Below, piece by piece: positions 11,051-52,233 of a DNA stretch of 64,000 bases. The notes beneath the pieces were generated by a model. It was not told the origin of the DNA. It saw only the letters and a program-made list of their open reading frames with translations, and ran no database searches. A program made the translations under genes and the position numbers. The stretch comes from a bacterium (lineage in GTDB: Bacteria; UBA10199; 2-02-FULL-50-16; JAJFLM01), in assembly GCA_965216315.1 (NCBI GenBank), contig CBDCFN010000016.1, forward strand, positions 1,728,001 through 1,792,000, written 5' to 3'. The number at the start of each line of letters is the position of its first letter. The stretch's first letter is position 1.

Positions 11051-11078
11051 ATTATCGGTAAAAATCAAGAAAAGTTGC
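11051..11078 (-). promoter_or_regulatory. Sigma-28-like promoter motif, copy 1 (GCAACTTT-N11-ACCGATAA)
   Basis: Minus strand CAACTT 11077-11072, 13-nt spacer, CCGATA 11058-11053, ATG 6 nt downstream. Confidence 0.7.
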
Positions 11079-11095
11079 TACTTCCGAGGAAGCCC

Positions 11096-12589
11096 TTAAA
11101 AAGAGCCGCCTACCCGGACTCCAGCCCCTGTCGGGGTTCTTGAAGCAGGATTGGTCGGGTCCATGGTCAGGAAGAAACCACCACCCAGGCTTCCCACCCC
11201 GGCGGACATGATTTGGATGCCGGAGGTGCGCTGTGCTTCGCCTGAAACGTCGAGGTGCGGGTTCGCATCGGGACCGGCGCCGATCGGCCGATGCGTCAAG
11301 ACGTCATCGGGCCCACTGTTCAGATTAGGAGCCGTCAACATCAACGCCAATCCGACCCCTAACTGCAGGGCACCACAGCCAATCATGGCACCGCGACTGT
11401 GCCAAATATCGTTAGAACCAGCCGCGCGCGGAATACCCGGCGCACCACCACAGAACAAAGCGGCACCAGCTCCGGACATCTCGGGGACATTACCGAAAAT
11501 ACCGCCGAGTTGAATACCCGCTCCTCCGAGCATGGTCACAACCGTCGCAATAGTCGTATTCGTCCGTGATTCAGCACCGTCCGGATCCGCATTGATCACG
11601 ATCTGACCGGTGTTATAAGAAATGTTACCGTAGTTAATCAGGTTAAGTCCGCCAACCAACAAACCGAAATTATCATCGCGCAACCCATCGATATGGGAGA
11701 CGTCGCTGCCGAGACCGGCAACACGAATCGAATGCGTCCCCGCGACACCAATGGCAAATAAACGATAACGGAGTCGCGCCCCCGGCGTTAAGTCTTCGCT
11801 GGTCGGTGTCTCCTCAAAATTGAAGCGTAGATGAAAACCCGTCGTTAAATTGTAAGGAACTCGATTGGGCCCACTTCCACCCAGCTCGGAGCGCTGCTGC
11901 AAACCAATCCCGAGATTGACGTGCCGGCCTAAATCAAGGCTCAAACCGGTAAAATCTTCAACGCCAAAGCTCACCGCACCATCGGCGCGGTCATGATCGA
12001 TCACGCTTAAGTAAAGCCCTGGGTTTTGATCGAGTAAGGTCCGAAAATTCGAATCACCAAAACGGAACAACTCACCGGAATGAGCGAGACCAAGCCCGAT
12101 ACGATGGCGCAGGGCATAGTCCGAGGGAAAACGATCGTCATAAGGGGTATGAAAGAGACCGTAACTCGCAAACAGACGATCCCCAGGTGGCAGGTTGAGT
12201 TCAAGCTGTAAAGACCCACCATTCTCCGGCTGCAAATTAGCAGCATTTTGCCGGATTGCAGGGAACATCCCGAGTTGTCCCCCCAACACAATACTCCCGA
12301 AACGCAGGGCTGGCGTGCGGATGCGCTCATTCGCCTCCGTAGGATTTTCTGTTGCTGTTGGATTGGGATCGGTCGTCGGTTCCGGACAGGGAATTAGGGT
12401 ACCATTTTCGATACGGGGTCGACATGCACCGGAACCGTCCGTTGTCGTTGAGGGAGACGCCGTATTCGGTTCGGGACAGGTATAAAGGTGTCCATCATGA
12501 ATCTCCGGCCGACAGGTCGTCGCCGCGTCGCAGACCATGCGTCTGACATCCGTTCCCCCTTCATTGACTGTACGTGGTTCACATCCCAT
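11096..12589 (-). CDS. Hypothetical protein: N-terminal Cys repeats, beta-barrel-like middle, Gly-rich hydrophobic helices, C-terminal Phe
   Basis: AGAGGAAG RBS; CRPEIHDGHLYTCPEP/CRPRIENGTLIPCPEP repeats; alternating amphipathic strands; ends GAGVRVGGSF. Confidence 0.75.
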   Translation of the reverse strand: MGCEPRTVNEGGTDVRRMVCDAATTCRPEIHDGHLYTCPEPNTASPSTTTDGSGACRPRIENGTLIPCPEPTTDPNPTATENPTEANERIRTPALRFGSIVLGGQLGMFPAIRQNAANLQPENGGSLQLELNLPPGDRLFASYGLFHTPYDDRFPSDYALRHRIGLGLAHSGELFRFGDSNFRTLLDQNPGLYLSVIDHDRADGAVSFGVEDFTGLSLDLGRHVNLGIGLQQRSELGGSGPNRVPYNLTTGFHLRFNFEETPTSEDLTPGARLRYRLFAIGVAGTHSIRVAGLGSDVSHIDGLRDDNFGLLVGGLNLINYGNISYNTGQIVINADPDGAESRTNTTIATVVTMLGGAGIQLGGIFGNVPEMSGAGAALFCGGAPGIPRAAGSNDIWHSRGAMIGCGALQLGVGLALMLTAPNLNSGPDDVLTHRPIGAGPDANPHLDVSGEAQRTSGIQIMSAGVGSLGGGFFLTMDPTNPASRTPTGAGVRVGGSF

Positions 12590-12607
12590 AATAAATTCTT
12601 CCTCTCT

Positions 12608-13717
12608 TTAGGAACCTCCATCTCCATTAGAAGTACTGTCCGGCGGACTGACTAATTCGACGGAAAACGTTGAAGCCGTATTTCCGTCGAGATCGGTACA
12701 GCCGCTACAAAATTGATAAGAACTTGCATCAAAGCCCTGGCCGACATCAAAAATCATATAGCTCTCCCCGCCGGTCAACAGCATAAGCTGCTCATTTTTA
12801 ATGAATCCAGGGGTAGGAACAAACTCACCGGGCTCCGGGTTTTCCGGAACATCTTCCGGCTGCCAAAACTCAGGAAGTCCACTATTGGAGTACAAACTAA
12901 ACACCGACACATCCTGAGGATTGTCAAGGTCCGCCGGCTGGGCACCACCAATCGTATTCCGGCAATGCAGAATCAACTCGCCCAGGGCTAAGTCGTAGGC
13001 CCCAACACAGGAGTAAACCAGACCAATCGGAATCAAGGGGTTTTCAGCCGTATCAATGCCGCAAAAATTAAGCCCGGGGACGGGATAACCATACTCATTA
13101 AAGCCACTGTAGTTGGTTTCATAACCGAGATTACAGATGCTATCCCCATGTTCGCGTAACTGCATCACGGAATTAGCAATATTCGTCCAGGATAGATCCG
13201 GTGACGTTTGAAAATCGGCCGGACGATTGGTCCACTGCCCGATCCCTCTAAAATAGGCAACAGAGGCAGGATCCGCTGTCTGCACCATCGCCACAAGGTC
13301 TGGATCCAGGGCGCTGACGTCATCCGCAGAAATATTTTCACCCGTCCGTGTGACGGTTAAATAACTACTCGTATTCAACGAAGGGTTACCGTTAAAGACG
13401 TGCTCATTCGCAGTCAAACGGAGATGAATATGCGGTGGCAATTGAGGAACGCCATCTCCTTCTTCGGCGAGACAATCGGCCAGGTCTTCTCCTTCGAGCC
13501 CTTCGCAGGGGTCCTCATCGCTCGGATCAGGAACGATCGGATCTTGCGGCGGTCGTCCGCCACCATCCGGCCCGCCTAGCTCATCACCATCGCCACCGCA
13601 ACCACTCAACAGGGCTACTGTCGTGAGCGCAATCGGCGCAATCGTCAATCTTGCCATCGTTCCCATCGCATTCATGACCGGGGCAAGCGTCGTCGCTAGT
13701 GGTGCTAAGAATGACAT
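12608..13717 (-). CDS. Hypothetical lipoprotein
   Basis: ARLTIAPIALTTVALLSGC lipobox followed by an acidic Gly/Pro linker; its start overlaps the stop of the upstream gene (TAATG). Confidence 0.75.
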   Translation of the reverse strand: MSFLAPLATTLAPVMNAMGTMARLTIAPIALTTVALLSGCGGDGDELGGPDGGGRPPQDPIVPDPSDEDPCEGLEGEDLADCLAEEGDGVPQLPPHIHLRLTANEHVFNGNPSLNTSSYLTVTRTGENISADDVSALDPDLVAMVQTADPASVAYFRGIGQWTNRPADFQTSPDLSWTNIANSVMQLREHGDSICNLGYETNYSGFNEYGYPVPGLNFCGIDTAENPLIPIGLVYSCVGAYDLALGELILHCRNTIGGAQPADLDNPQDVSVFSLYSNSGLPEFWQPEDVPENPEPGEFVPTPGFIKNEQLMLLTGGESYMIFDVGQGFDASSYQFCSGCTDLDGNTASTFSVELVSPPDSTSNGDGGS

Positions 13718-16700
13718 TAGTTAAACCTCCAGCTTCTATAAATATTGGGAATCTCGCGTGCTTCATTCATCGTCGCGTCATCGAGTGATTCTTCCATCTC
13801 CATGGGATCGATGGCTTCTGGATCCATTTCGGGAGCTTCATCAGCACCATCAGAACCATCTGCACCATCGGAACCGTCCGTGTCAGGATCCGGATCTTCT
13901 GGATCATCCGAGGGGTCTATATCTTCTGGATCAACAGTTGTATCATTCATATCCATCGACATGCTTTCTGTCCCCTCGGAATCACAAGAATTAAGAACGG
14001 GATCAAAACCAATGCCTAAGTAACGTGGTTCTCCCGACGTGATGCGAATCACGGGATCATCCAAACCAAGCGAACGGAAACCAAAGCCTTGCAATAAATC
14101 TTCCAGGCTATCTTCTTCGGCCGTTCCATCACACACAGCGTCTTTAGGCAGTACGGTATCAATTTCCAAGGCAAATTCATTGCCACCACCGAAATTGAAG
14201 AGATTGAGCGTCGTCCCGTTCAGGTTGGCGTTCATATTAATGGCCAGATCCGCATCCGAATAAGGGGTATTGTTTTCTTTGACCGAGATTTTAAAGAATG
14301 AGGCTTCCGGATCCGGAACAAGGGACACTTGGCCGTTCGGCTTATGCAGTTCTTTAGGCTTCAGTCCGGCCGTGATTTTAAGTTTTCCATCGGACGTATC
14401 CGTCTCATACTGGGCCCAAGCAGTAACCGACGCATCCAGACGGAAACTCAGGATAGGAACATCTTTATCCTCGGTACAATTTGGATGAGCCTGCGGTTGT
14501 CTATCACACCAACTAATCAGATTAACGGTCTCTCCCCCTTCAACTTGGCGACGCAGGTTTGTTTCCGGGTCAACGCGTTTGCCATCCTCATCGGTCAGAA
14601 CCTCATCTTCGAACACCTGCAGTTCGGCGTCGGAAAGAGCCACTTTAAGAGCCAGAGAAATAGCTTGAGGTCGGCCATTAACATCTTCTATCGCCGAACT
14701 GCTCAAAAATTGGACCATCGGCGGCAAATTAGGATTCAACTTGAGGCGGAAACGCAACGGTGTACTCAGTTCTTCCTGAGTCACACTGCCATCGCCGTTC
14801 AAGTCAAATTCACCGATAATTTGATCTACCTGAAGGCGCAGCGGAAAACATTCCTTCGGCTGCTTTTCTACCGGCACGGCCACCAATAAGCCGTCATCAT
14901 CTTTCTTAAAACACTGTTGCGGGGCAACCGTCGCACCGATACCAAAGCGATCCACGACACCAAAGTCATTGGTATCGATAAAGTCTGGTTCCCTATCCAA
15001 GAGCTCGTTCAACATGGTTGCAATACCATGCAGGGCCATGTTCGCCATCTCTTCTTTGAGGGTCAGATTGACGTTCTTACGAAGGCGGCGCGCCGCACTG
15101 ATCGGATCGACTTTGCCGGATTCTGCATCGGCTAAATAACCATTATCGGAATTTTTAATCGATGCCGGCAAATTGTTCATGAAGTCAACCGAATCACGCT
15201 CACTATCGGGAGTCGGATCGCCTTCCTCAAACGCACCCGAAGGCAGCACTAAACTACCACCTTTGAAAGAAATGCCACGCGGACTAAGGATGAGATCCGC
15301 CTTCAAGAGATCTGAGAATATCTCCGTCGTAAACTCTTTACCAAAGAGAGGTACCGTAAGAGGCATGAGTGGATCGTTCGCGAACTTGCCGAGCTCTTTC
15401 GTTAAAATCTTTGGCGTCAAACAAGAAACCTGGCTTTTGATCGTCTCTACGAGCTGCGTCGAAACGTTGGCGCTTGTCGGCGTCGGCTCCAAACTGGAAC
15501 CATTGATCTGCTGATTGAGAGATTCCATCGCCTTACAGGCCGGTTGATCGATCCAAACTTCAGCCGTTTCACTGCTCTCATCGTAACAGCCGTCACCATC
15601 CAGAGTTGTACTCCATGGCCGATCACAACGAAATTTGACTAACCGTCCGCCCGGTCCCCAAGCATCAATCAAGTCGTGACCCGGAATCGGATTAACCGCT
15701 GTTACAGTAAGCCCGCTCTCGTCCTTGGAAAGTTGGATCTCCAGATTAACGGTCAACCAATTGACTTGCAATTCAACCGGAAGAACACCCAAACCAAGGT
15801 CCTGATCTTTGTCAAAGCAGGCACCCTGGAGCTTGTTGTCAACAAGATCTAAGCCGGCACAGTCCGTCTCATTACATTTGATCGTAAAAATTTCCGTGAA
15901 ACCGCTAAGCCCCGCGATTTCTAAACGCACCCAGGCGCGATTCTTATTCAAGAAATGAAGGGAACTGATATCAAGAGCCCCAATCGTCGGATCAATAATA
16001 TTGAAGGTCCGAAAAAGGTTGGGTTGCGGTCCGACCCAATCGCATTGATCAACCGCTTCTTGAGTCGGCGCTTGCGGCTTAAAAAGAGCTAAGAAAATAT
16101 CTTTTTTAAACTTGTCCGTGTTCATCGCCGTTTCGATGTCGTCTATCAAGGCGCCCTGACCGCTTTCCGTCACCTCAAGATAAGAGGCCGGAATGTGTCC
16201 AGCCAATGCCGCATCAACTTCCGTCCTAATTAAATTTCCTTCATCATCGAAGCGGCTTCGCATCTCACCATAACCAAAGCTCACGGACTTTTGCGTATCA
16301 CGGCCTTCATCCGCCGCTTTCACCGTCACGGCTTTGAGTGGGAAACTAAGTCCGCCCTCCTTCAACTTGAATACATATTTTTTATCTTCGGCTGCCGTCG
16401 GACACATTTCATAGAATTCATCGAGCTGCTTATCCGGGTTGCCGCGCTCAAAGATCGGCAAGGTCTCATTATCTTCCTGGATACAGGCTCGATCCATCGT
16501 TACCGGAACGACTTCAAGCGCTGTCGTGCAAATAATTGATGTGGGACTTGGGCACGGAGAAATATTTATCTGGTTGAGAAATGTCTCGCAATCCTCGACA
16601 CCAAGGTTGTCGCAGATTTCTTGGCAGGTAAAATCCTGACCCTCTTCTCCCTCGGCCGCGGCAATGTCACATATACCGTCGTTGTCGTTATCCGGATCGT

Positions 16701-18003
16701 CAATATCGAGGAGTCCATCCTTGTCAAAATCATTGCAAAGGCGTCGGGCATCAAGGTCACAACCCGCTTCCACTGAAGGAATAAAGGTCGGTGCTTCTTC
16801 CGGACAGGCCCCTACACCAGCCACGACCACCATATCGGTTATTTCATCGGCGCGGACAGGCCAACCATCAAGTTTCTCGATATAGTGACCCTCCTGATCA
16901 AAGAATTGGAGACATAACTCTGGGGCGGCTACTTGGTTGTCCAGCGGAGCGACTTCAATGACCTGACCATCACCGGGATTATACCCTGTCACCGTATTTT
17001 GAACGCGGATGGAAATGTCATTGCTGCCGTTACCTAGAGGAATACCTGTAATCAAAAAGCCATTCGTATTCCCCGCCGCGCAGAGCGCGTTACGTCCGCA
17101 AAAAATTTCAACCGTGGGACAGGCTAATTCGGCAATTTTGGCGTCCGTACAATCTTCTTCAGCCACCTCAGCCGCAGTACAACAAACAGAGTCTGATTCA
17201 GCCTGCGCGTTATCCACATCCTCAACGGTCGGACAGGGTCGACTCAAGGTCCAGTGCTTGCCCGTTTCCTCTTCCGTTGCTTCATCGATTTCATTAGTTA
17301 CGGTCACAACAACCTTGGCACCCGATGCATCTCCCTCTGGATTAGCCAGACAGATGTCGAGCGTTTTAGAAGCAATCGGGTCAGAACTCAGAGTGTATTC
17401 ACCGGTTCCAGCATCTTGCGTAATGCCTGGCGTCAGATCTTCGTCGGCCTGATTGAGTTCGGCCATGGTAATTTTCAGATCAGGGGCAGAAACTTTAACA
17501 AACTGGCGATTGATAACAACGATGTTCGGAAGACCCATGTTGGCAATGAAGAGAGCATTTGTACTCGCAACATAGAGGCCCGGATCGGAAGACGGGAGAG
17601 TGACGTTCGCTTCAAAATCACCGCCGGTCAGCGAATTAGGATCGATAACGACTCGCGGCGGCACATCGACAGGATTATCGACAGAATTAACTTCTACGAA
17701 AAAATTGGCTAGGTTTGGAACCTGGGTCGCCAACCCACTAACACAAATACTCGTCCCGAGGACCTCCGGCGGGGTGCCCGCATTAGGCGGCGCTGGCTCG
17801 GCCACACAAAGCATTCCCGAATCTCCGCCTTCGAAATTCTCAGGGTGAGCGATCTCATCACAAAAATCACTGACCGGATTGGTAGGCGGAGTGCAGACGG
17901 CATAGGCCGCTCCGCACACCGCTAATGACACCCCATTAAGGAGTAAGCCTAGAACCAAAAAACGTCGTAATTTCAACAACATTAGCGTAAGAATCTCCCT
18001 CAT
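13717..18003 (-). CDS. Giant (1428 aa) secreted Cys-rich acidic protein with Ca-binding-like loops
   Basis: Signal peptide ending AAYA; many Cys; DFDKDGLLDIDDPDNDNDGICD and DLNGDGSVTQEE motifs; Asp/Glu low-complexity tail. Confidence 0.85.
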   Translation of the reverse strand: MREILTLMLLKLRRFLVLGLLLNGVSLAVCGAAYAVCTPPTNPVSDFCDEIAHPENFEGGDSGMLCVAEPAPPNAGTPPEVLGTSICVSGLATQVPNLANFFVEVNSVDNPVDVPPRVVIDPNSLTGGDFEANVTLPSSDPGLYVASTNALFIANMGLPNIVVINRQFVKVSAPDLKITMAELNQADEDLTPGITQDAGTGEYTLSSDPIASKTLDICLANPEGDASGAKVVVTVTNEIDEATEEETGKHWTLSRPCPTVEDVDNAQAESDSVCCTAAEVAEEDCTDAKIAELACPTVEIFCGRNALCAAGNTNGFLITGIPLGNGSNDISIRVQNTVTGYNPGDGQVIEVAPLDNQVAAPELCLQFFDQEGHYIEKLDGWPVRADEITDMVVVAGVGACPEEAPTFIPSVEAGCDLDARRLCNDFDKDGLLDIDDPDNDNDGICDIAAAEGEEGQDFTCQEICDNLGVEDCETFLNQINISPCPSPTSIICTTALEVVPVTMDRACIQEDNETLPIFERGNPDKQLDEFYEMCPTAAEDKKYVFKLKEGGLSFPLKAVTVKAADEGRDTQKSVSFGYGEMRSRFDDEGNLIRTEVDAALAGHIPASYLEVTESGQGALIDDIETAMNTDKFKKDIFLALFKPQAPTQEAVDQCDWVGPQPNLFRTFNIIDPTIGALDISSLHFLNKNRAWVRLEIAGLSGFTEIFTIKCNETDCAGLDLVDNKLQGACFDKDQDLGLGVLPVELQVNWLTVNLEIQLSKDESGLTVTAVNPIPGHDLIDAWGPGGRLVKFRCDRPWSTTLDGDGCYDESSETAEVWIDQPACKAMESLNQQINGSSLEPTPTSANVSTQLVETIKSQVSCLTPKILTKELGKFANDPLMPLTVPLFGKEFTTEIFSDLLKADLILSPRGISFKGGSLVLPSGAFEEGDPTPDSERDSVDFMNNLPASIKNSDNGYLADAESGKVDPISAARRLRKNVNLTLKEEMANMALHGIATMLNELLDREPDFIDTNDFGVVDRFGIGATVAPQQCFKKDDDGLLVAVPVEKQPKECFPLRLQVDQIIGEFDLNGDGSVTQEELSTPLRFRLKLNPNLPPMVQFLSSSAIEDVNGRPQAISLALKVALSDAELQVFEDEVLTDEDGKRVDPETNLRRQVEGGETVNLISWCDRQPQAHPNCTEDKDVPILSFRLDASVTAWAQYETDTSDGKLKITAGLKPKELHKPNGQVSLVPDPEASFFKISVKENNTPYSDADLAINMNANLNGTTLNLFNFGGGNEFALEIDTVLPKDAVCDGTAEEDSLEDLLQGFGFRSLGLDDPVIRITSGEPRYLGIGFDPVLNSCDSEGTESMSMDMNDTTVDPEDIDPSDDPEDPDPDTDGSDGADGSDGADEAPEMDPEAIDPMEMEESLDDATMNEAREIPNIYRSWRFN

Positions 18004-18007
18004 GGCG

Positions 18008-18035
18008 AGTATCGGTTTCTACGGTCAAAAGTTGT
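18008..18035 (-). promoter_or_regulatory. Sigma-28-like promoter motif, copy 2 (ACAACTTT-N11-ACCGATAC)
   Basis: Minus strand CAACTT 18034-18029, 13-nt spacer, CCGATA 18015-18010, ATG 6 nt downstream. Confidence 0.7.
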
Positions 18036-18088: not shown

Positions 18089-21000
18089 CTAATTGATATT
18101 ACAAGAACCGGCGCCACCTTGCGGAACACAGGCCTTGATGATCACGTACATATCGCGAGGCGCCGCCAACTGCGGAGAATTATGCTTCAGGCGGAAAGCC
18201 CCCGCCAGGTCAAAGGTCAGACCCGATGGGACCGAGTTACTGTCCAAATGGGTCGTTGTATTCGTATCTGGTACGGAATCAACTGCCGGTATTCCCATGC
18301 GGCGACCGCGCATCACATTCGCCCCAGCAGCGCAATCCGGCATGGTATCCATATGTTGCTTCAACGGATTGTCCCCAAAAATCGTATTCTTGTTGCTTCC
18401 ACCGGCATCCAACTCCGTGGCGCCGAAGACCTGAGTGGTTAAGAGAGCCGCCGGTATCGCCGCGCTGAGACCCGGTTCAGCAACCAGTACATTACCCTCT
18501 GCATCCGCTAGACATTCCGTACTCAACGTTCCTACCATCGCCGAATCAACTCGATCGGTCAGATCTGTCTTAGGATGCATGAAAAGTCGAATCGCCACGT
18601 TATTGGTAAACTGAATCTTACCGCCGGCCGGATCGTAAACACCCAAGGCTTCCTCAAAATCCGCGTCAGAGGAAAAGTCGACCGATTCCGGATTCTTCGC
18701 AATAATACTGAGCGCATCCGAAGATGAATAGTTCGTATAAATGGAGGGTGCCGGCGCAGAAGACTCAAAGCTGGTTTGGTCTTTTGCAATGTAAAGATAG
18801 AATTCCGAACAACCAGCCCCTGGACTACTCTGACAATCATCCCGGAACAACCACTGACCGCCACTGCCTGGACCGGACGCGGTCGGATTGAAGAGACGCA
18901 TCTGCCCCGTGCCACCGGTAAATGCGGGCGGCAACGGTGTGAATACAGGGTCCAGCGTGATAATTCCATTCGCCGCGTCAAAGGTAACCGGCAGTTTAAA
19001 GGTATCAAACCCACTCAGGCTGGCGCGATCACGTTGGCCTGGTGTCACGGTCGAAGTCATTTTGGTCCCATCAGGAAGGGCCGTATTGATACCTCCAACC
19101 ATCCTCAAGACGTGAAGGTTGGCTCCTCCATTCGGCGCCCCGCTCACCCCTTGCAGGCTGCCGTTGAGAACCAAGGGCTCATTCGCAGCACTCTCACAGG
19201 TTCCGCCTTGATTGATCGCGTCACCCGTTACATCCAAAGTCGCACTATGAAGTGTCCGTGAAGTCGCGCCGCCATCCGTAATATAAGCAATGTCACCAAT
19301 TTTAAGTGCTTCGCCAGGATTCAAGATGAGACAACCACTATCAAAGAGCGTCGGTTCTGGAATCGTTGCATTCCACTGAGCCGCATCAACACCCCCAGCG
19401 AAAGTTATATTGCCGTTGGTTACGCGTAAAGCATCCGCCAGGAGCGCGGCATTTCCATTGACAAGATAAACACCGCGGGTGGACGTATCACTTCTGAAGG
19501 CCGTATAGCCTTCGACGGGATCGACTCTGACCGCAGCCTTCGTATTTCCTTCGACACAAATAACATTGGAAGGAAGAATCCCGCTGCAATCAATCAAATG
19601 CGGATTATCCGTAATTCCAGCGTCTAATAGGACCGGATCTTCGATATAAACTTCCAGTCGCGCTGCGAGATCCAAGGTCATCGCGCCGCTCAAACTCAAT
19701 AAGCGATTACCGGCATCGGTCTGAATCAATACACTCGCAGCATCCTGGCGGCAGGGTTTGCCCTCACAGTCATCGGGCTCCGTGGGCAGATTACCGCTGG
19801 GCCAGTAGACTTCATAGAAATAAAGCTTATCGCTGCCATCCGTCGATACCGTTGCCGGCATGGGGCTGAAACTAAACAGCGCATCTTCGAGAGATTCACC
19901 CTGAAGGGTGGCCCCTTTCATGAAATTAAAGGTCAGATCATTTGATTGAACGGAGGTCACCGTCAGGTCACGAACACCACTATTACTGATCTCGTAGGCC
20001 TTGATCACCGGTGTCCCGACCGGGGTCGTTCCATAAGCGACTTCACCATCGCCGGGAATCAGTTCCGGCATCACAGGAAGATTATACGTCTCGCCCTGGA
20101 TCGCACCAACCTCCGTAACCTTAACATCCGCTGCGGGTGGCCGTGCCGTCCCGGTTACGGTAATTGTTAAGGAGCCGCCCTCAAATATATCAATCTCGGC
20201 GGTACAATCCCATTTGGTCGGATCAATGTCATTGTCGACGCATCCACTTGGCTTCGGATCCGTCGGTGCAAAGCGCACCTGAATGTTTTTTGATTCACCG
20301 GAGTTTAATGAGGTCCCATTCAAAAGACCCGCCGCCGCAATTTCAAAGGCCGTATTGTCAGAACTTATATCAAAGACCGGCGCCGCATCAGAAGGCGTCC
20401 CGTCATTTGTAATCGTCAAAGAAATAATCGTCTCGAAACGGGCCAGAACATTGATATCCGTAATCCCGGCATCGACTTCTTCTTTATAAAAAGGCTCATC
20501 GGCCAGATCCACCTCGGCCGTAAAGACATTGGCATCACCCTCAGTGAGCGGAAGGTCCTCCCCATCGAGATCCACACTAATATTAAGATCACCCGAACCA
20601 CCGCCATTATTGCCACCGCTGCTGCCTGTCTTCGCACAGGCCGTTGCTAGGTCGACAAAGGGGGTTCCATCGGCATTCTCAACCGGTCCCTCAATTTCAG
20701 CACCCAAGGCCGCTCCCTGTAATCCGGCCAGGCAGGTCTCGGTTGGAATTGATAAGCCCGTCACCAGGCGCAACCAAGGTTGATTCGGGTTACTCCCGGG
20801 ATTGGTTCCGCACGCCGGAGAGTCCACATCACCATCCGGATCCATTGTGCAATCACACTCACTCGCAGGCGCTATCGGGCAACCGGTAAAAGTAATCGTT
20901 CCTGATGAATCCGCAATGCTGGCATGCGGTTGGGCATCCGAATTCGTTCCCGTCGTAAATGTCAGCGGTAACCCCTCAAGCGGAGGCAACACGGATACGC

Positions 21001-22171
21001 CCTGCAAACCGGTCGTCGAACAGGTCACGCCGGACATCTTAATCAATGGGTCTTCAAGGTTAAATCCGGGATCGGTAAAATCACTGACATAGGCATCGAA
21101 GATCGCCGGCGGAGGTGCCGTATGATCCGTAAAAGGAAACTTGATCAGATTGATCGCGCGAAAATGTAACGGCAAAGCAGTTACGGAAACACGGCCCGAT
21201 TCATCGACAGAGTAATCCCCCTGTCCCACAATTTCAGGTATTTGAATCCCCGGCGCAATGAGCTCACCGTGACCGGCGTCAACCGCGAGATTGGCCTGCA
21301 GGTCTTCACTCGTATTATAAATCAGATAGTCCGGAAACTCAGAAGCCTTGATAAAAATCTTTCCGCCAGCATTGGGATCAGACGCATTATCGGGAACAAA
21401 ATAGAGATTGATGGGATCCTGGTCACGCGTCGCAAAGGGAATCAGCGGCACATTGGTTCGGGCCAGACAATCCGTTTTAGAATCTCCGGAAAACTTGTTG
21501 CATTCAGTAATAAGCGCCGGGTCGTCCTCCGGACCACTGTTCTTCACGCACCCAAACTCAGTGACCTCGTTATCAGTACTACAGGCGTTAGGCAAATCTT
21601 GCGCGGGAAACTGGGCATCGATATAAAGTTTGAGCCCGACATTGTCAGGTGACTTCAGTCCCGCCTGCCACACGACCTTACAGGTATCCGTCGGAATATT
21701 GACGCACTCACACTTGACTAGGTCTATGGTCTGACTTGCGGTACATGTTGGAGGGGTCGGGCACGAATTAACGACACAGGAATTACTCGAGGTATTACAG
21801 GTTTCACCGTCCGCACAATCCTCGTTAACACGACATCCGACCTGACAAACATCACTCTCACAAATCTGATTGTCGCCGTTACTATCATCGGGGCAATCAG
21901 AATCGCTACTACAGTCGGGAGCAGGTGTACTGACATTACAACTCCCGTCCGACTTATTACACTCCTGCCCCGTCGGACAGGTCACGTTGGCACATAGATC
22001 CGTACCGCTACCGCTCCCGCCATCACCTGAATCATCGTCGACGCCGGGGAAGGTAAACGGTGCATCGGAGTTGGGCTCGCTAAACAAGCCGCAGCCGGCC
22101 GTCGTAAAAACGAGCGCAAGTGTGACTAGGAGTGGCAGGAATCGAATCTTATGTGACCTGATTAATCGCAA
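18089..22171 (-). CDS. Giant (~1360 aa) Cys-rich lipoprotein with Ig-like (choice-of-anchor D-like) domains; start moved to TTG at ~22171
   Basis: GAGG 6 nt before the TTG; RSHKIRFLPLLVTLALVFTTAGC lipobox; Cys repeats (CANVTCPTGQEC, CSSDSDC, CRVNEDC); ISLTITNDG..LNSGESKNIQVRFAP and YEISNSGVRDLTVTSV Ig-like patterns. Confidence 0.82.
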   Translation of the reverse strand: MRLIRSHKIRFLPLLVTLALVFTTAGCGLFSEPNSDAPFTFPGVDDDSGDGGSGSGTDLCANVTCPTGQECNKSDGSCNVSTPAPDCSSDSDCPDDSNGDNQICESDVCQVGCRVNEDCADGETCNTSSNSCVVNSCPTPPTCTASQTIDLVKCECVNIPTDTCKVVWQAGLKSPDNVGLKLYIDAQFPAQDLPNACSTDNEVTEFGCVKNSGPEDDPALITECNKFSGDSKTDCLARTNVPLIPFATRDQDPINLYFVPDNASDPNAGGKIFIKASEFPDYLIYNTSEDLQANLAVDAGHGELIAPGIQIPEIVGQGDYSVDESGRVSVTALPLHFRAINLIKFPFTDHTAPPPAIFDAYVSDFTDPGFNLEDPLIKMSGVTCSTTGLQGVSVLPPLEGLPLTFTTGTNSDAQPHASIADSSGTITFTGCPIAPASECDCTMDPDGDVDSPACGTNPGSNPNQPWLRLVTGLSIPTETCLAGLQGAALGAEIEGPVENADGTPFVDLATACAKTGSSGGNNGGGSGDLNISVDLDGEDLPLTEGDANVFTAEVDLADEPFYKEEVDAGITDINVLARFETIISLTITNDGTPSDAAPVFDISSDNTAFEIAAAGLLNGTSLNSGESKNIQVRFAPTDPKPSGCVDNDIDPTKWDCTAEIDIFEGGSLTITVTGTARPPAADVKVTEVGAIQGETYNLPVMPELIPGDGEVAYGTTPVGTPVIKAYEISNSGVRDLTVTSVQSNDLTFNFMKGATLQGESLEDALFSFSPMPATVSTDGSDKLYFYEVYWPSGNLPTEPDDCEGKPCRQDAASVLIQTDAGNRLLSLSGAMTLDLAARLEVYIEDPVLLDAGITDNPHLIDCSGILPSNVICVEGNTKAAVRVDPVEGYTAFRSDTSTRGVYLVNGNAALLADALRVTNGNITFAGGVDAAQWNATIPEPTLFDSGCLILNPGEALKIGDIAYITDGGATSRTLHSATLDVTGDAINQGGTCESAANEPLVLNGSLQGVSGAPNGGANLHVLRMVGGINTALPDGTKMTSTVTPGQRDRASLSGFDTFKLPVTFDAANGIITLDPVFTPLPPAFTGGTGQMRLFNPTASGPGSGGQWLFRDDCQSSPGAGCSEFYLYIAKDQTSFESSAPAPSIYTNYSSSDALSIIAKNPESVDFSSDADFEEALGVYDPAGGKIQFTNNVAIRLFMHPKTDLTDRVDSAMVGTLSTECLADAEGNVLVAEPGLSAAIPAALLTTQVFGATELDAGGSNKNTIFGDNPLKQHMDTMPDCAAGANVMRGRRMGIPAVDSVPDTNTTTHLDSNSVPSGLTFDLAGAFRLKHNSPQLAAPRDMYVIIKACVPQGGAGSCNIN

Positions 22172-22208
22172 CAGCAACCTCGCTTTGAGGGCTCTAAGCC
22201 CTGCCGCA

Positions 22209-22236
22209 TCTATCGTCAATTGATTTCGATTGTTGC
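22209..22236 (-). promoter_or_regulatory. Sigma-28-like promoter motif, copy 3 (GCAACAAT-N11-GACGATAG)
   Basis: Minus strand CAACAA 22235-22230, 13-nt spacer, ACGATA 22216-22211, upstream of the giant lipoprotein. Confidence 0.55.
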
Positions 22237-22337: not shown

Positions 22338-22796
22338 ATGACAGTCGAGCATTCCGGACCCCACAAAAAGCCCAAGATCAGCCTCGTCGAGGTGATGGTT
22401 GCCGTCGCCATTATCGGAACGGCAGCCTCGCTCGCCGTTCCCCGCTACATGAAAGATATGAAAGCCGAACGGCAAGCGGAATGCCCCCGCGAACTCAATA
22501 AAATAGTCGCGGCTCAACAGGCTTTTTTTCAAGCCCATCAGCGCTATAGCGCTAATTTAGCTGACCTTGACTGGAAGCCCCCGGCTAAAGCCGTTTATCT
22601 CTATGGCTTTCACAATGGATCGGTGTCCAAGACAGATAATCCGGAGCTCAGCGCCGACAAACTGCCGAAAACAACGCTTTCGCCACAACATTTCATCATC
22701 GGCTGTATCGGCAATCTCGATACCGATCCGGAACTAGATATTTTTACCATCGATGAGCAAGCAAAGCTCGTCCACCTCCACAACGACCGGCAATAA
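22338..22796 (+). CDS. Type IV pilin-like protein with an atypical cleavage site
   Basis: KKPK-ISLVEVMVAVAIIGTAASLAVPRY..AERQAEC..LNKIVAAQQAFF..RYS; C-terminal GNLDTDPELDIFTIDE. Confidence 0.85.
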   Translation: MTVEHSGPHKKPKISLVEVMVAVAIIGTAASLAVPRYMKDMKAERQAECPRELNKIVAAQQAFFQAHQRYSANLADLDWKPPAKAVYLYGFHNGSVSKTDNPELSADKLPKTTLSPQHFIIGCIGNLDTDPELDIFTIDEQAKLVHLHNDRQ

Positions 22797-36141: not shown

Positions 36142-37872
36142 ATGACCGCAGTAATAGCCACCTTGATCTGCCTGCTCGCATACGCCCTCGGCTATCGTTT
36201 CTATTCGCGTTATCTCGCTAACAAAATCTTCGGGCTCCGACCAGAAGCCGTCACACCGGCCCACGCGCTCCGTGATGACGTGGACTATGTCCCCTCTCCA
36301 CGACTCATCCTCTTTGGCCACCATTATGCCTCGATCACCGGTCTGGCCCCGATGCTGGGGCCAGCCGTCGCCGTCATCTGGGGCTGGATCCCCGCAATGC
36401 TGTGGGTGGTACTAGGCGCCTTGCTCGTCGGCTGTGTCCACGACTTTGGTGCCTTGGTCATTTCGATACGCGCCAGAGGTATGAGCATCGGCAAGGTAAC
36501 GGAAGGAATTATCGGTCATCGCGCCAAAACGCTCTTTTTATTGCTGATCTTTTTCGGGATTTCACTGGCGATGGGAGTCTTTGTCTTTGTCATCTCCACC
36601 CTGTTCACGACTAAGTTCTATCCTCAAGCCGTTTCTCCGTCCGCCATTATTATGATTCTTGCAGTGATAATGGGTTATCTTATCTTTAAAAAAGGCTGGC
36701 AACTGCCCATGCTAACCGGCCTCGCCTTCGCGTTGAGCCTACTCGGCATTTGGGTGGGACTGGCCGCTCCGACCATGGGCGTGGCAAATGAAACGTGGCC
36801 TGACGTTCATACATGGTCATGGATCTTGTTGGCCTACGCCTTCATTGCCAGCGTACTGCCCGTCTGGGCCTTACTGCAAAGCCGCGATTTCATTAACTCC
36901 CTTTTACTCTATTTAGGGCTCGGCACCATGTATATTGGCTTTTTCGTGCTCAAGCCGGAGTTTGCCTCACCGGCTTTTAACGCCCATCCGGAGGGAGCGC
37001 CCTCAATCTTCCCCTTCGTGTTCATCGTCATCGCCTGCGGCGCGGCCAGTGGATTTCATTCGCTGGTAAGCTCCGGAACGACAGCAAAACAAATTAACCG
37101 CGAACCGGACGCCCGCTTCATCGGCTATGGTGGGATGATTGGCGAGTCACTGTTGGGATTGATGGCCGTTCTCGCCTGCACCGCCGGATTCATCTCAAAA
37201 GAACATTGGCATTCCCATTATGTTGACTGGACCAGCGTGCAGGGTCTGGGCAATACCATCAGTGCTTTCATCGAAGGATCGGCCCGCTTTATCAGTGGTC
37301 TCGGAATTCCCGGCAAGGTAGCGTCCTCATTTGTCGCCGTCGTGGTGGTGAGCTTTGCACTGACGACTTTGGATTCGGCAACCCGCCTCCTCCGCTATAA
37401 TATCGAAGAACTTGCCGAGGCCGCCGGCATCAAAGTGCGTCTCAACCGCTATCTGAGTTCCCTCCTCGCTGTGGCCGCCATTGCCTTCTTTGCCTTCTAT
37501 GAAATTAACGGCAAACCTGCCGGGCTGACACTCTGGCAACTCTTTGGCACAACCAACCAATTATTGGCCAGCCTAGCCCTCCTGGTCGTGACGCTTTATC
37601 TCAAGCAACGAGGCCGCAACTATTGGTTTACGCTTATTCCAATGGTATTCATGCTTGGCACGACATTAGCCGCCATGGTGAGCCAACTCAGTAAATTCTG
37701 GCACACGGATAATATCCTCCTCTTCATTGTTGGGTCGATATTGATGCTCCTGGCCTTATGGTTGCTCTTTGATGCCGTGATTACCCTTAGGAAACCGACG
37801 CGGCATTTGGAAGGCACGCTGGATATCAAGTTTAAAGACGGCTCAGAAGATCATCCCGTTCCAAGCGTTTAA
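36142..37872 (+). CDS. cstA: Carbon starvation protein A (peptide/pyruvate transporter family)
   Basis: TPAH..DDVDYVP, LFGHHYASITG, IACGAASGFHSLVSSGTT, TTLDSATRL, WQLFGTTNQLLA. Confidence 0.93.
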   Translation: MTAVIATLICLLAYALGYRFYSRYLANKIFGLRPEAVTPAHALRDDVDYVPSPRLILFGHHYASITGLAPMLGPAVAVIWGWIPAMLWVVLGALLVGCVHDFGALVISIRARGMSIGKVTEGIIGHRAKTLFLLLIFFGISLAMGVFVFVISTLFTTKFYPQAVSPSAIIMILAVIMGYLIFKKGWQLPMLTGLAFALSLLGIWVGLAAPTMGVANETWPDVHTWSWILLAYAFIASVLPVWALLQSRDFINSLLLYLGLGTMYIGFFVLKPEFASPAFNAHPEGAPSIFPFVFIVIACGAASGFHSLVSSGTTAKQINREPDARFIGYGGMIGESLLGLMAVLACTAGFISKEHWHSHYVDWTSVQGLGNTISAFIEGSARFISGLGIPGKVASSFVAVVVVSFALTTLDSATRLLRYNIEELAEAAGIKVRLNRYLSSLLAVAAIAFFAFYEINGKPAGLTLWQLFGTTNQLLASLALLVVTLYLKQRGRNYWFTLIPMVFMLGTTLAAMVSQLSKFWHTDNILLFIVGSILMLLALWLLFDAVITLRKPTRHLEGTLDIKFKDGSEDHPVPSV

Positions 37873-38402
37873 ATAATTAAATTTTGCAGAACTTTTTGGT
37901 GGGCTTGCAAGTCACTCTCACTGAATAACACAAAACGAACGAGTCGCAGGGCGCTTATTTGGGGCGCATAGTGCATGACTGTCTCGAAGGCAATGGTCGC
38001 TGCCTCTTTCAAAGGATAGCCAAAAATACCGGTGGAAATAGCGCAACTCGCCAGCGATGAGATCTTTTTGTCGTCGCACAACTGAAGCGCATTCCGATAG
38101 CAATTAGCCAGCAAGTCAGCCTCTGGCCTATCGACGCCGTAAATGGGGCCTAAACAATGGATCACGTAATCATTGGGCAATTGATGTGCCGACGTAATTA
38201 CGGCATCTCCCGGCTTAATGGGCGCTAGCGGGCGGCATTCGACCTCTAGGCCTGGACCCGCGGCACGGTGAATCGCCCCCGCAACCCCACCTCCTGATAT
38301 CAATTCTGCATTGGCGGCGTTGATAACCGCTTGGCAGTCGGGCTGCTCCACGATATCGCCTTGAACGCATTCCAAGGTAAAATTTCCAAACTGATGCTTC
38401 AT
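37869..38402 (-). CDS. Macro domain protein (ADP-ribose/O-acetyl-ADP-ribose hydrolase); possible upstream in-frame start at 38504
   Basis: QGDI, INAAN..GGGVAGAIHRAAG, VIHCLGP, AISTGIFGYP. Confidence 0.92.
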   Translation of the reverse strand: MKHQFGNFTLECVQGDIVEQPDCQAVINAANAELISGGGVAGAIHRAAGPGLEVECRPLAPIKPGDAVITSAHQLPNDYVIHCLGPIYGVDRPEADLLANCYRNALQLCDDKKISSLASCAISTGIFGYPLKEAATIAFETVMHYAPQISALRLVRFVLFSESDLQAHQKVLQNLII

Positions 38403-38526
38403 CGGAGGCCCGATTCTACCCGAATCAAAGCCCAAGTGAAAGTTTCCCGCGGCACAAAGAGAAGTCGCTGCCGGATAAGTCAACATCCTCGCTGGCACAA
38501 CCATAACCACCTCCTCAGCGAGAGTG

Positions 38527-38554
38527 ACTATCGTCCACCACAACGATAAGTTGT
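38527..38554 (-). promoter_or_regulatory. Sigma-28-like promoter motif, copy 4 (ACAACTTA-N11-GACGATAG)
   Basis: Minus strand CAACTT 38553-38548, 13-nt spacer, ACGATA 38534-38529, followed by GAGGAGG and an ATG at 38504. Confidence 0.65.
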
Positions 38555-40066: not shown

Positions 40067-40068
40067 CT

Positions 40069-46593: not shown

Positions 46594-46709
46594 GCCCGCT
46601 ACAGTGCTAACAGAGACAAAGCATTGTCAAGATTACCCCAAACTGATTGAAAATTAATGATTTTGAGCCCTTGACTTGAAAGCAAAATCTTCGTTAGCCT
46701 TCGGACTCA

Positions 46710-47852: not shown

Positions 47853-47893
47853 TATCCTTTACAAGCCAACTCTCTAAGTATAATGAAGTAAAC

Positions 47894-48205
47894 ATGCATC
47901 TCGGCGTCGTACTCTGGAAAGAGCAGCACACACCGAAGGCAACGGAATTACGTGACCGCATGAAAGATGATGGTTTCGATGTCATCGATTGGTCCGACCC
48001 TGCAGGAGCCGTTTACCAACCACACGCCCATAATCACGATGAAGTGATTGTCCCTTACGATGGCCGAATTGAGTTTATTATTGAGGGACAAAACTATCTC
48101 CTTGATCCCGGCGATGCGCTTTTCTTGCCGAAGGGAACGATCCATTCTGCGCGCGTGGGCGGTGACGGGGCTTCATACCTGATAGGACAGCCCAGCACGC
48201 GTTGA
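47894..48205 (+). CDS. Cupin domain protein
   Basis: PHAHNHDE..G..F....LDPGDALFLPKGTIHSA. Confidence 0.88.
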   Translation: MHLGVVLWKEQHTPKATELRDRMKDDGFDVIDWSDPAGAVYQPHAHNHDEVIVPYDGRIEFIIEGQNYLLDPGDALFLPKGTIHSARVGGDGASYLIGQPSTR

Positions 48206-48224
48206 ATCGGGTTCGTCAGGTGGG

Positions 48225-48254
48225 TTGACAGACTCCACCAAGATTCCTTATTAA
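48225..48254 (+). promoter_or_regulatory. Sigma-70 promoter predicted to give a leaderless mRNA
   Basis: TTGACA 48225-48230, N18, TATTAA 48249-48254; ATG at 48261 with no SD. Confidence 0.55.
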
Positions 48255-48260
48255 GCCGCC

Positions 48261-49415: not shown

Positions 49416-49515
49416 CCGGCTATTAGGATAAGTACTCTCCCCGATAAGGGCCCAATCCCTATTGGAATAAACTTTGATGACAACGTACATTAATTTTGTT
49501 AAATTACGTATCACT

Positions 49516-50511: not shown

Positions 50512-50523
50512 GATTAGGATTCC

Positions 50524-51342
50524 GTGCGCAATCAAGACATAATCGACGTTCTGGAAGATTTTGCTCCTTTAGGTCTTGCTGAGGAATGGGATGCCGTCGG
50601 CCTCCAAGTAGGAGATCCACAGCAAGAATGCAATACGGTCGCCCTCGCCCTTGATCTCACCGCCGAGAACTTAGCTGAAGCGCAGGCGGTCGGAGCCAAT
50701 ATGATTGTCGTGCATCATCCTATTCTTATGCGCGCTACCAAGACGATTCGTTATGATCAGCCACTCGGACATCTTATCCAACAATTATGTACCCACAAAC
50801 TATCGCTCTACGTCATGCACACCAATCTTGATTCAACTCGCGGAGGGCTCAATGATCATCTGGCGAATGCAATCGGGCTAATCAACGTACGCAGTCTCTT
50901 ACCTGCCCCTGCAACAACTCCCGAGCGTTTTCAGGGACAAGTTGTCGGGCTCGGCCGCATTGGTGAACTACAGGAAGGCATCCCCCTCGCTACTCTTGCA
51001 ACACGGCTCCAAGAGGAGCTCCGCCCGGAAGCCCTGCGCATCATCGGGCCTGATCAGCGCCAGATTCAAAGTGTCGCTTTGTGCTCGGGAAGTGGTGGCT
51101 CCTTAGTCCATCAAGCCATTAACAGTGGAGCGGACTGTTATGTCACCGGTGACGTCAAATATCACCAGGCGCTTGATGCGGAAGCGGCTGGGCTCTGCAT
51201 TCTTGATGCCGGTCACTATGCCACCGAGATTTCAAGCATTGCCATTATGCAATCCGTCCTCACGACAAAATTTGGAAATGATTTGAATATCGTACGCCTC
51301 GAAAAGGCACGTGATCCATTAAGAGCTTTTCATTCTGTCTAA
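50524..51342 (+). CDS. Nif3-like dinuclear metal centre protein (YbgI/YqfO family)
   Basis: AEEWDAVGLQVG, HHP, HTNLD, CSGSG, TGDVKYH, DAGHYATE. Confidence 0.93.
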   Translation: MRNQDIIDVLEDFAPLGLAEEWDAVGLQVGDPQQECNTVALALDLTAENLAEAQAVGANMIVVHHPILMRATKTIRYDQPLGHLIQQLCTHKLSLYVMHTNLDSTRGGLNDHLANAIGLINVRSLLPAPATTPERFQGQVVGLGRIGELQEGIPLATLATRLQEELRPEALRIIGPDQRQIQSVALCSGSGGSLVHQAINSGADCYVTGDVKYHQALDAEAAGLCILDAGHYATEISSIAIMQSVLTTKFGNDLNIVRLEKARDPLRAFHSV

Positions 51343-52152
51343 TACACCTGCATAATATTCTGTTGCGCTAGCGTTATCCCTTTTCGCAAAACCTTTAATC
51401 AGAATATCACAGCGTCTCCTAATATCACTCTTAACAATTTTTTTTTGTTCTTCATTGATAGCCGCATCATCCAAAATCTTTAGTAGGGCCTGAATTCGAT
51501 AACGATCCAAACCCCATTGACGCGATAGCTGGTCTTCATGGCCGCCACGCTTAATGGTCAAGGCATCACGCAGCGTTTCAACCTTAAAATGTAGCGCGAT
51601 ACGCAACCACAGGTCGTAGTCTTCGCACGCAGGCAATTCTTCATCAAAGTGGCCGCATCGATCAAAAACCTCGCGATGGATCATGACTGCTGAGGGAGAA
51701 ACCAGACATAAAGGAATCATTTCTTCAAAAACCCAACCGGACGGCTTACGGTGAATTTCCCGGGGATTGACGCGACGGCCATTACGAATCCAGATTTCTT
51801 CCGTCTGCAGGACCCGCAATGAGGAATCAGCCTGAATGGCGTCCCACTGTCGTCTAAGTTTATCCGGCACCCAGAGATCATCGGAGTCGAGTAAGGCGAT
51901 CCAATCGTAACGGGCTGCTGCGATTCCGCGATTGCGGGCGGCACTCACTCCTCGTTGATCCTGGTAAATGTATTCCAGTTCCATTGGAAATTCGCGACAG
52001 AGCGCTGCTGTCTGGTCCGTAGAGCCATCATCGACGACAATGAGCTCCAGCGGCTGCAGCGTCTGGTTTCGGACTGATTCAAGGCATTCTCGAAGCCAGT
52101 CCGCCCGGTTATAGGTCGGAATGACCACGCTAATAGCAGGCTTTTTCATCAT
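51319..52152 (-). CDS. Glycosyltransferase family 2
   Basis: SVVIPTYNR, VDDGSTD, GVSAARNRG, LDSDD, CEDYDLWLR. Confidence 0.93.
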   Translation of the reverse strand: MMKKPAISVVIPTYNRADWLRECLESVRNQTLQPLELIVVDDGSTDQTAALCREFPMELEYIYQDQRGVSAARNRGIAAARYDWIALLDSDDLWVPDKLRRQWDAIQADSSLRVLQTEEIWIRNGRRVNPREIHRKPSGWVFEEMIPLCLVSPSAVMIHREVFDRCGHFDEELPACEDYDLWLRIALHFKVETLRDALTIKRGGHEDQLSRQWGLDRYRIQALLKILDDAAINEEQKKIVKSDIRRRCDILIKGFAKRDNASATEYYAGVLDRMKSS

Positions 52153-52205
52153 AACTAGCTAAAATCATTAATTTAATTCTAACTGACGCATTGCGTCTTT
52201 TTCAC

Positions 52206-52233
52206 GCAACTTCTAACGCACCGTGTCGATACT
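52206..52233 (+). promoter_or_regulatory. Sigma-28-like promoter motif, copy 5 (GCAACTTC-N11-GTCGATAC)
   Basis: CAACTT 52207-52212, 13-nt spacer, TCGATA 52226-52231, ATG at 52244. Confidence 0.65.

Follow-up and report, generated by a model that had tools for sequence, protein, structure and literature searches.

In Bdellovibrio bacteriovorus, 92 of 140 attack-phase promoters are reported to carry a FliA box of the form TTAAG-N16-CCGATA (PMC3627812). For Pseudomonas syringae, a cascade has been described in which HrpR/S and sigma-54 lead to HrpL, which in turn acts through the hrp box (PMC8228185), and the sigma-28 of Chlamydia trachomatis is described as binding two promoters only (hctB and tsp), which were compared with the bacterial sigma-28 consensus (PMC12282069). 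The early-branching nonflagellar type III secretion system (T3SS) found in Myxococcales (NF-T3SS or T3SS*) has been described without a secretin, an SctF needle, a tip, or a translocon, and Myxococcus xanthus is reported to use it in prey lysis (PMC3459982, PMC10849154). Here, we analyzed a promoter motif in a 64,000-nucleotide stretch (the window; C16:1728001-1792000) of a bacterial genome of the phylum UBA10199 (G000; 2.96 Mb, 98% complete). A preliminary description of the window had proposed that five intergenic copies of a sigma-28-like promoter with a variant -35 box point to a hidden regulon of surface proteins and putative effectors. As far as can be judged from sequence, this motif is a genuine promoter, a sigma-28 variant found throughout the phylum, and it is very probably read by a FliA/WhiG-like sigma factor whose gene resides in a nonflagellar T3SS (injectisome) cluster elsewhere in the genome.

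The expanded FliA regulon of Bdellovibrio, HrpL, the Myxococcales T3SS, and chlamydial sigma-28 are the nearest described cases in the sources consulted; the present analysis adds evidence for a needle and a rod, a sigma-54 tier, sites with a conserved 18-nt spacer, a class of tails, and a reciprocal change in FliA. As in the Bdellovibrio FliA regulon, the register of N16 and CCGATA is kept and the regulon extends far beyond flagella to surface and unknown proteins (PMC3627812). Bdellovibrio uses the flagellar FliA and TTAAG, whereas here the -35 box is RCAAC, the sigma gene lies in an injectisome cluster, and flagellin, rod proteins, and FlgM had no match in G000. The resemblance to HrpL consists of an alternative sigma factor tied to a T3SS, a predicted sigma-54 promoter with a linked enhancer-binding protein, and one box for structural and scattered genes (PMC8228185). 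However, HrpL is a sigma factor of the extracytoplasmic function (ECF) type; the factor described here is a group 3, FliA/WhiG-like one, the candidate activator carries an FHA domain and is encoded near a Ser/Thr kinase, and about 9% of the genes are involved. The GCCGATAA -10 box, the register of the elements, and the arginine reading the extended -10 are shared with sigma-28 of Escherichia coli and Pseudomonas aeruginosa (PMC12784957; 10.1101/2020.01.02.893370), but MRCAAC stands in place of TCTAAAG, Q228 is changed to R, adjacent helix residues are altered, and no FlgM was found. Like the NF-T3SS of Myxococcales, the cluster is nonflagellar and comes without a dedicated secretin; unlike that system, it includes needle-like and inner-rod-like genes, two SycD-like chaperones, and tip-like paralogues. 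The main text of Abby and Rocha (PMC3459982) makes no mention of "fliA" or "sigma," and its supplements may list Myxococcales sigma genes. C. trachomatis likewise retains sigma-28 in a nonflagellated T3SS bearer, although with two promoters (PMC12282069). No published description of the RCAAC box or of the cluster sigma was found among titles and abstract openings, a coverage outside which most subscription papers fall.

All five sites of the preliminary description were recovered in the window with the sequences and coordinates it had quoted; its count was short by one, as a sixth site before the second of two patatin genes had been missed. The sites are the following:

11052..11078, minus strand: promoter site 1 (RCAAC-N16-CGATA), from the motif scan of the window
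18009..18035, minus strand: promoter site 2 (RCAAC-N16-CGATA), from the same scan
22210..22236, minus strand: promoter site 3 (RCAAC-N16-CGATA), from the same scan
38528..38554, minus strand: promoter site 4, directly after a gltD-like gene
52206..52232, plus strand: promoter site 5, ahead of patatin-like protein 1
53370..53396, plus strand: promoter site 6, within the 3' end of the patatin 1 gene, with the ATG of patatin 2 at the predicted +1

Two in-gene matches in the window (10173-10199 with N17 and 19828-19855 with N18) were taken as chance.

The pattern of the preliminary description matched the window six times, against 0.06 expected matches and a maximum of 1 in 100 shuffles. This pattern had been fitted to the window and was therefore tested on the rest of the genome, for which genes were called with our own dicodon model (9.7% of the genome is intergenic). 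Genome-wide, it occurred 73 times at its own spacing, 23 times with one additional base, and 1 to 14 times at the other 17 spacings. RCAAC-N16-CGATA yielded 127 sites, 107 of them intergenic. The N17 and N18 forms yielded 39 (23 intergenic) and 44 (26 intergenic) sites, and the remaining 13 spacers from 10 to 25 had 0 to 6 intergenic sites each. Most of the N16 and N17 sites (126 of 166) were intergenic and faced a gene on the same strand. Single-base variants were mostly at background, with some excess for RAAAC, CGAAA, CGATG, and CGATT. A scoring matrix trained on sites outside the window gave 250 intergenic matches at spacers of 16 to 18 nt, compared to 37 at six control spacers (a net of ~230), and a match was located upstream of 235 of the 2582 called genes. 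The motif is thus intergenic, gene directed, and spacer specific rather than a background pattern. Its reported absence before housekeeping genes was borne out by 13 of 13 probe genes, mostly housekeeping, that had no matrix match.

Conservation was assessed in 93 genomes of the phylum, of which 63 were rated good; being kin, they are not independent. The 16-nt motif exceeded a reversed-pattern control in all 93 (14 to 128 sites versus 0 to 14), and the 18-nt form was above control in most of 65 genomes. Orthologues of the site 1 target were present in 17 of the 93 genomes. Upstream of the 16 others, which have 26 to 54% protein identity, the exact motif was found in 12 cases and a one-mismatch form in 2, with 1 doubtful case and 1 without upstream DNA. 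A patatin gene of the relative G002 (locus L186) that is similar to the site 5 target is preceded by the same promoter. The most conserved sites of those seen are located ahead of the needle-like gene of the T3SS cluster: 26 of 27 related loci having upstream DNA carried a strict site, with a spacer of 18 nt in 25 loci and of 17 nt in 1. Two more needle-gene loci lacked upstream DNA and are outside this count. The idea that the motif is due to chance, a repeat, or a mobile-element scar draws on the post hoc fit of the pattern in the window; it is refuted by the enrichment outside the window, the spacer specificity, the orientation bias, the variable spacer sequence, and the retention of the motif before such diverged orthologues, and its probability is close to nil.

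The consensus box reads MRCAACTTT-N11-GYCGATAA, with 16 nt, sometimes 17 to 18, from RCAAC to CGATA. Positions that were not part of the search pattern resemble sigma-28 promoters: among the 127 sites, T occupied the three bases after CAAC in 62, 79, and 74 cases, G and C preceded CGATA in 62 and 53, and A followed it in 80. Thus, the -10 element is GCCGATAA with a strict CGATA core and the 16-nt spacing is that of the sigma-28 class, with RCAAC replacing the -35 element TAAAG/TCTAAAG. TAAA..CGATA, with the normal sigma-28 -35, was not enriched in G000 and was mostly at control level in 65 genomes. In the structure of P. aeruginosa sigma-28, GCCGATAA spans -15 to -8 and the -35 element is TCTAAAG (PMC12784957); by this numbering, the predicted +1 follows CGATA at a distance of eight bases. 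Among called genes, in-frame ATGs are most frequent at this very offset (12 of 166, with 37 at offsets 7 to 11), and many targets therefore look leaderless. The two ATGs that the preliminary description had placed 6 nt after CGATA are present; their likely position is 2 nt upstream of the predicted +1, however, and other in-frame starts exist (11043 or 11031; 17982).

That ATGs cluster at the predicted +1 is expected of a core promoter and not of an operator, which argues against recognition of the motif by a two-site DNA-binding regulator. Reading by RpoD or by the RpoH-like sigma would agree with the sigma-70-like tolerance for spacers of 16 to 18 nt and, for RpoD, with its universal presence. 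However, a separate TTGAC(A/T)-N16-18-TAnnnT class exists in the genome (58 intergenic sites versus 36 for six control spacers), the probe genes lacked the motif, and one genome with 95 sites (G004) has no RpoH-sized sigma. We regard recognition by RpoD, the RpoH-like sigma, or such a regulator as extremely unlikely.

The 18-nt sites of G000 have an extension of their own (GCAAC-T-C-R-A) and favor T3SS structural genes and lipoproteins. According to a rough lipobox rule, 6 of 23 targets of 18-nt sites were lipoproteins, compared to 5 of 107 in the comparison set. In a tandem array of ~13 orphan genes (C16:2163562-2201381), several of which are paralogous and contain Cys, each gene has its own promoter copy.

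Five sigma-70 region 2 matches were obtained in G000: RpoD, a factor that we take from its sequence to be RpoH-like, two ECF-sized factors, and a 275-aa FliA/WhiG-like factor, referred to here as the cluster sigma:

C16:350583-351410 of G000, outside the window: FliA/WhiG-like sigma gene, inside the nonflagellar type III secretion cluster

Family and structure profile searches gave FliA/WhiG as its best families and solved relatives, and its alignment with FliA structures is continuous, although 9 to 15 residues shorter over the aligned part. The cluster sigma was present in 91 of 93 phylum genomes, including 63 of 63 good ones, and is the sole alternative sigma-70 common to all motif-rich genomes examined. 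In a family search of five genomes, G004 (97% complete) contained an RpoD-sized sigma, the cluster sigma, and no third sigma-70; G030 and G021 had one extra sigma-70 of RpoH size; and G006 and G075 had four and five matches.

ECF promoters combine an AAC-type -35 with a -10 that starts with CG, and AAC followed by CG ~16 nt further on resembles them. As G000 encodes two ECF-sized sigmas, one of these could read the motif, like HrpL or BtrS in other type III systems. We consider this very unlikely: the two ECFs are patchy (of 93 genomes, 15 and 18 have matches at orthologue level; of the 63 good ones, 30 and 38 have any match with an E value of <=1e-8), G004 lacks any third sigma-70 and the extra factor of G030 and G021 has RpoH size, and the unfixed positions of the motif match sigma-28.

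Residue conservation was read from an alignment of 47 cluster-sigma rows. In region 2.4/3.0, R91, A95, D98, R101, and R108 are invariant where aligned (45 to 46 of 47 rows), and R108 aligns with R97 of P. aeruginosa, described as the reader of the extended -10 (PMC12784957). The region 4.2 helix has the form K-S-W-x-S-R in 47 of 47 rows (K225, S226, W227, S229, and R230; KSWTSR in place of the ESRVSQ of FliA and WhiG). The P. aeruginosa residue aligned with R230 is Q228, which reads the -35 through a contact with -36T; activity falls when it is mutated (PMC12784957). For E. coli sigma-28, -10 contacts are reported to be strong and -35 contacts weak (10.1101/2020.01.02.893370). Retention of the -10-reading residues together with the changed region 4.2 helix predicts a kept -10 and an altered -35. 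The divergent sigma-28-family factor with altered region 4.2 that the preliminary description had postulated thus exists and belongs to the phylum core, its reading of RCAAC being deduced from sequence. In a quick tree, 21 cluster sigmas formed one clade (SH-like approximate likelihood ratio test [SH-aLRT] value of 99) on a long branch, apart from both ECFs, and the nearest Atlas clusters are commonest in Myxococcota. Locus L057, tried as an out-of-phylum relative, was a false lead. A Pfam search of G000 did not find a FlgM-like anti-sigma. Right upstream of the sigma gene lies a 119-aa open reading frame (ORF) (L059:4010-4366), and dissimilar ORFs of ~105 to 125 aa fill this slot in many relatives. 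These ORFs gave no homology matches; they are candidates for an anti-sigma factor or a secreted regulator.

Of 38 loci with sufficient DNA upstream, 31 had a sigma-54 motif within 300 nt before the sigma match. The controls gave 1 of 38 on the reverse strand, 5 of 36 downstream, 3 of 37 further upstream, and 73 of 3800 shuffles. G000 shares this motif directly upstream of the sigma gene (L059:4540-4560, just upstream of C16 350583) and contains rpoN. The cluster is flanked by a sigma-54 activator with an FHA domain, an orthologue of which is present in 61 of 63 good genomes, and by a Ser/Thr kinase. We infer that this activator drives the promoter of the sigma gene.

Within the cluster, SctV and SctN exceed the NCBIfam cutoffs. 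Matches were also obtained for SctJ, L, O, P, Q, R, S, and T, for FliO-, FliG-, and FliM-like genes, and for two SycD-like chaperones; SctU is encoded elsewhere in the genome (357.1 versus a cutoff of 358, scoring above FlhB). The needle-like gene codes for 183 aa. A profile of its C terminus (24 sequences) had 11 PDB matches: a 43-residue chain of 7Y6C ranked first (E value, 4e-4), which we take for the needle part of a complex with chaperones, followed by nine PrgI/MxiH chains (E values, 0.1 to 0.8), and one match was unrelated. The gene after the needle-like gene resembles CdsG and SctY chaperones. The rod-like gene after the sigma gene matched MxiI (E value of 0.0075, ranked behind an unrelated protein), and TIGR02497 was matched in 9 of 26 members of its family. 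The needle and rod matches are coherent and lie under the curated cutoffs; because of them, the cluster likely encodes a needle and an inner rod. The tip-like proteins encoded beside the SycD-like chaperones gave Atlas leads, all under 0.9, to DUF720, EspA, IpaD/SipD, and LcrV, and word-based homologue searches with two of them returned 3 and 2 proteins, self counted. Strict sites in G000 lie ahead of sctV and the needle-like gene, as well as before a conserved gene of 151 aa and two tip-like genes. The machine may inject into another cell, and that target cell is itself presumptive. Given the presence of an injectisome, the predation or host-contact life stage envisaged in the preliminary description is plausible.

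Of 65 genomes, 10 contain flagellin, and the same 10 are the ones that encode a second sigma above the TIGR02479 cutoff; only these 10 paralogues pass it. All 10 genomes retain the cluster sigma. In the FliAs of these flagellated relatives, the helix is of the FliA type, with ESR or EAR followed by I/V-S/C-Q. Eight of the 10 flagellin upstream regions carried T(A/C/T)AAG-N16/17-CGT(T/C), with TC before each, a pattern found by eye that combines a normal -35 with an altered -10. The FliAs of these eight form one clade in a quick tree (SH-aLRT value of 96) with a changed region 2.4, so this was probably one event. As for the other two, G087 had a canonical TAAAG-N16-CGATA site before flagellin, and G048 had none by the altered pattern although its FliA shows the same A-to-Q change in region 2.4. 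No RCAAC site was found within 300 nt before flagellin in any of the 10 genomes. This comparison excludes the flagellar FliA as the reader of RCAAC and suggests two insulated sigma-28 circuits where flagella persist. Enrichment of the canonical TAAAG-N16-CGATA in flagellated relatives was also looked for and failed, with mostly control-level counts and only the G087 site before flagellin.

Strict sites stood before 149 genes, 117 of which had no Pfam match (E value of <=1e-8), compared to 52 of 140 neighboring control genes (P value of 8e-13; the controls were first-in-unit neighbors drawn at random from 473). The expectation of a regulon rich in orphans was therefore correct. The scale of the regulon (about 9% of genes), the spacers of 16 to 18 nt, and the type III link lay beyond the view of the preliminary description. 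Among the 32 targets with Pfam matches are four DUF4423 regulators, patatins, a macrodomain, GNAT, RtcB, phosphoesterases, subtilases, and alpha-2-macroglobulin. PanD, an AcrB-type pump, and a DEAD helicase are also in this set, and some of these may be neighbors by chance. No ankyrin, F-box, SET, or LRR match occurred among the Pfam-matched targets, which is a weak hint of a noneukaryotic target. One target (L097:2777-5770) combines an uncharged tail with a ResIII/DEAD helicase domain and sigma-70 region 4 matches; it is possible that it acts on bacterial transcription. Palindromes of the form GT(T/C)CAC-N4-GTG(A/G)AC are located 44 to 68 nt upstream of some promoters (C16:94505, 98645, and 105034 regions; L097), near DUF4423 genes that are themselves targets.

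Among leaderless targets of 16-nt sites, 34 of 43 begin with an uncharged tail (at most one charged residue in residues 2 to 21), compared to 105 of 575 controls. Equally low charge was seen at residues 61 to 80 in only 2 of the same 43 proteins, and targets bearing a ribosome-binding site (RBS) had the tail in 15 of 45 cases. The tails have a high content of S, A, L, and T, frequently end in LLA(A)S, and have no basic N-region as in Sec signals. In a reverse test, a matrix match was found for 43 of 76 tail genes and 161 of 1955 other genes, with the caveats that the tail definition was tuned on targets and that start choice differs between the sets. About 75 unrelated G000 proteins carry the tail (examples in L094, L113, and L132), and it recurs in family f1 (G000, G001, and G002). 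We slightly favor the view that it is a type III secretion signal.

From these observations, the following course of events can be proposed. The FHA-domain enhancer-binding protein, with sigma-54, would turn on the sigma gene. Regions 2.4/3.0 of the cluster sigma would read an ordinary GCCGATAA -10 box, and the changed region 4.2 helix (KSWTSR for ESRVSQ) would read RCAAC in place of TAAAG. The cluster sigma would then transcribe sctV and the needle-like and tip-like genes, mostly via spacers of 17 to 18 nt, and would also drive some 230 scattered genes, mostly with 16 nt, that code for surface lipoproteins, the four DUF4423 regulators, and orphans. Many of these scattered targets would be leaderless and would carry the uncharged N-terminal tail as a probable secretion signal. 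Binding, start sites, the cascade, and secretion of the targets are all predictions. A bolder reading goes further: a secretin-less, needle-bearing injectisome cluster would keep a flagellar sigma with respecified -35 recognition as a phylum-wide switch for contact attack, the flagellar FliA, where flagella persist, would have changed its -10 so that the circuits are insulated, and in family f1 the tail would mark ~75 injected substrates, the box being a key to effectors. We put this bolder reading forward tentatively, at somewhat below even probability.

Several observations, in addition to the ECF-like look of the box, weigh against the proposed course of events. The cluster sigma reaches 133 bits on TIGR02479, for which the cutoff is 189.6, its Pfam region 3 domain was not matched, and the quick tree, with its long branch, leaves its placement relative to FliA open. 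Since the motif, like the sigma gene, is universal in the phylum, there is no negative case for the co-occurrence of the two. The 18-nt form was at or under control in several of the 65 genomes. A dedicated T3SS secretin SctC was not found in G000 (the only matches were a GspD, encoded in a type II cluster, and a weak one of 253 aa), and the tip-like proteins have no hydrophobic hairpin, which leaves injection into another cell a conjecture. Many targets are Sec-type lipoproteins, and the regulon is therefore not an effector list. Finally, the tail had to be rejected as a phylum-wide signal: none of 10 loci in G003 showed it, five other families had it at about 1 to 2 of their 30 loci, and in the samples seen it is restricted to family f1.

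Alternatively, the sigma factor may be right, but its regulon could be a general developmental or envelope program, comparable to the Bdellovibrio attack phase, with the type III cluster as one client and the tails serving another purpose, for example, as leader peptides that aid leaderless translation. This agrees with the many targets that are lipoproteins, subtilases, alpha-2-macroglobulin, or regulators, with a tail that is family restricted and strongest in leaderless genes, and with the failure to find a dedicated secretin or a clear translocon. It fits less well with the position of the sigma gene within the cluster, with the needle-gene sites being the most conserved, and with tails that also occur on RBS genes and are grafted onto enzyme domains such as the macrodomain of the window. 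We judge such a general program to be a serious possibility, if less likely than not.

The targets of the six sites and the genes associated with them in the window are the following:

9916..11046, minus strand: site 1 target, orphan lipoprotein-like gene (371 to 376 aa); hydrophobic stretch ending in Cys, as read from sequence; no Pfam match
13717..18003, minus strand: site 2 target, Cys-rich orphan (1421 to 1428 aa) with 39 Cys and a signal-peptide-like N terminus; no Pfam/NCBIfam match
11096..13717, minus strand: two more orphans (369 aa, lipoprotein-like, and 497 aa), with 1 nt overlap and an 18-nt gap; no family match
18089..22177, minus strand: site 3 target, Cys-rich lipoprotein-like orphan of ~1360 aa; start codon uncertain
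37869..38504, minus strand: site 4 target, macrodomain protein (Pfam Macro, E value of 1e-38)
52244..53407, plus strand: site 5 target, patatin-like protein 1 (Pfam Patatin, E value of 8e-14); no long tail
53404..54555, plus strand: site 6 target, patatin-like protein 2 (Pfam Patatin, E value of 1e-10); predicted leaderless

The two orphans at 11096..13717 probably share the transcript from site 2 as part of an operon. The site 3 target had a single weak choice-of-anchor D match (E value of 0.004, under the cutoff) in the Pfam/NCBIfam-type family search. As to the N termini, the macrodomain protein has the uncharged tail, both patatins lack it, and those of the large proteins are of the ordinary signal or lipoprotein type. 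The macrodomain protein has ~42 extra N-terminal residues that open with the tail, and NCBIfam models begin to align at residues 36 to 46. The uncharged N termini of the patatins were rejected as secretion-like tails, since they are mostly the first strand of the enzyme. Both patatins (52244-54555) retain the GxSxG and DG motifs; their glycine-rich loop is degenerate, and lipase activity is therefore uncertain. Genes for a GAF histidine kinase, a TolC-like protein, an MlaC-like protein, and a phosphodiesterase (4954-9894, minus strand) closely trail the site 1 lipoprotein gene and may be cotranscribed with it. A small gene at 22338-22796 (plus strand), which presumably has a prepilin-like N terminus, is divergent from promoter site 3.

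The box is strict and searchable and thus provides a list of presumably secretion-linked genes for a phylum that has been seen in metagenomes only; the claims can be tested in laboratory E. coli, with no need to grow the organism itself. The sigma-28 variants that nature offers here, with changed -35 and -10 recognition, allow the code of recognition to be tested and may be of use as orthogonal pairs of sigma and promoter. If the proposal is true, a flagellar late sigma factor would have survived the transition from flagellum to injectisome, rewired for the new machine, as the regulatory counterpart of the structural exaptation described by Abby and Rocha.

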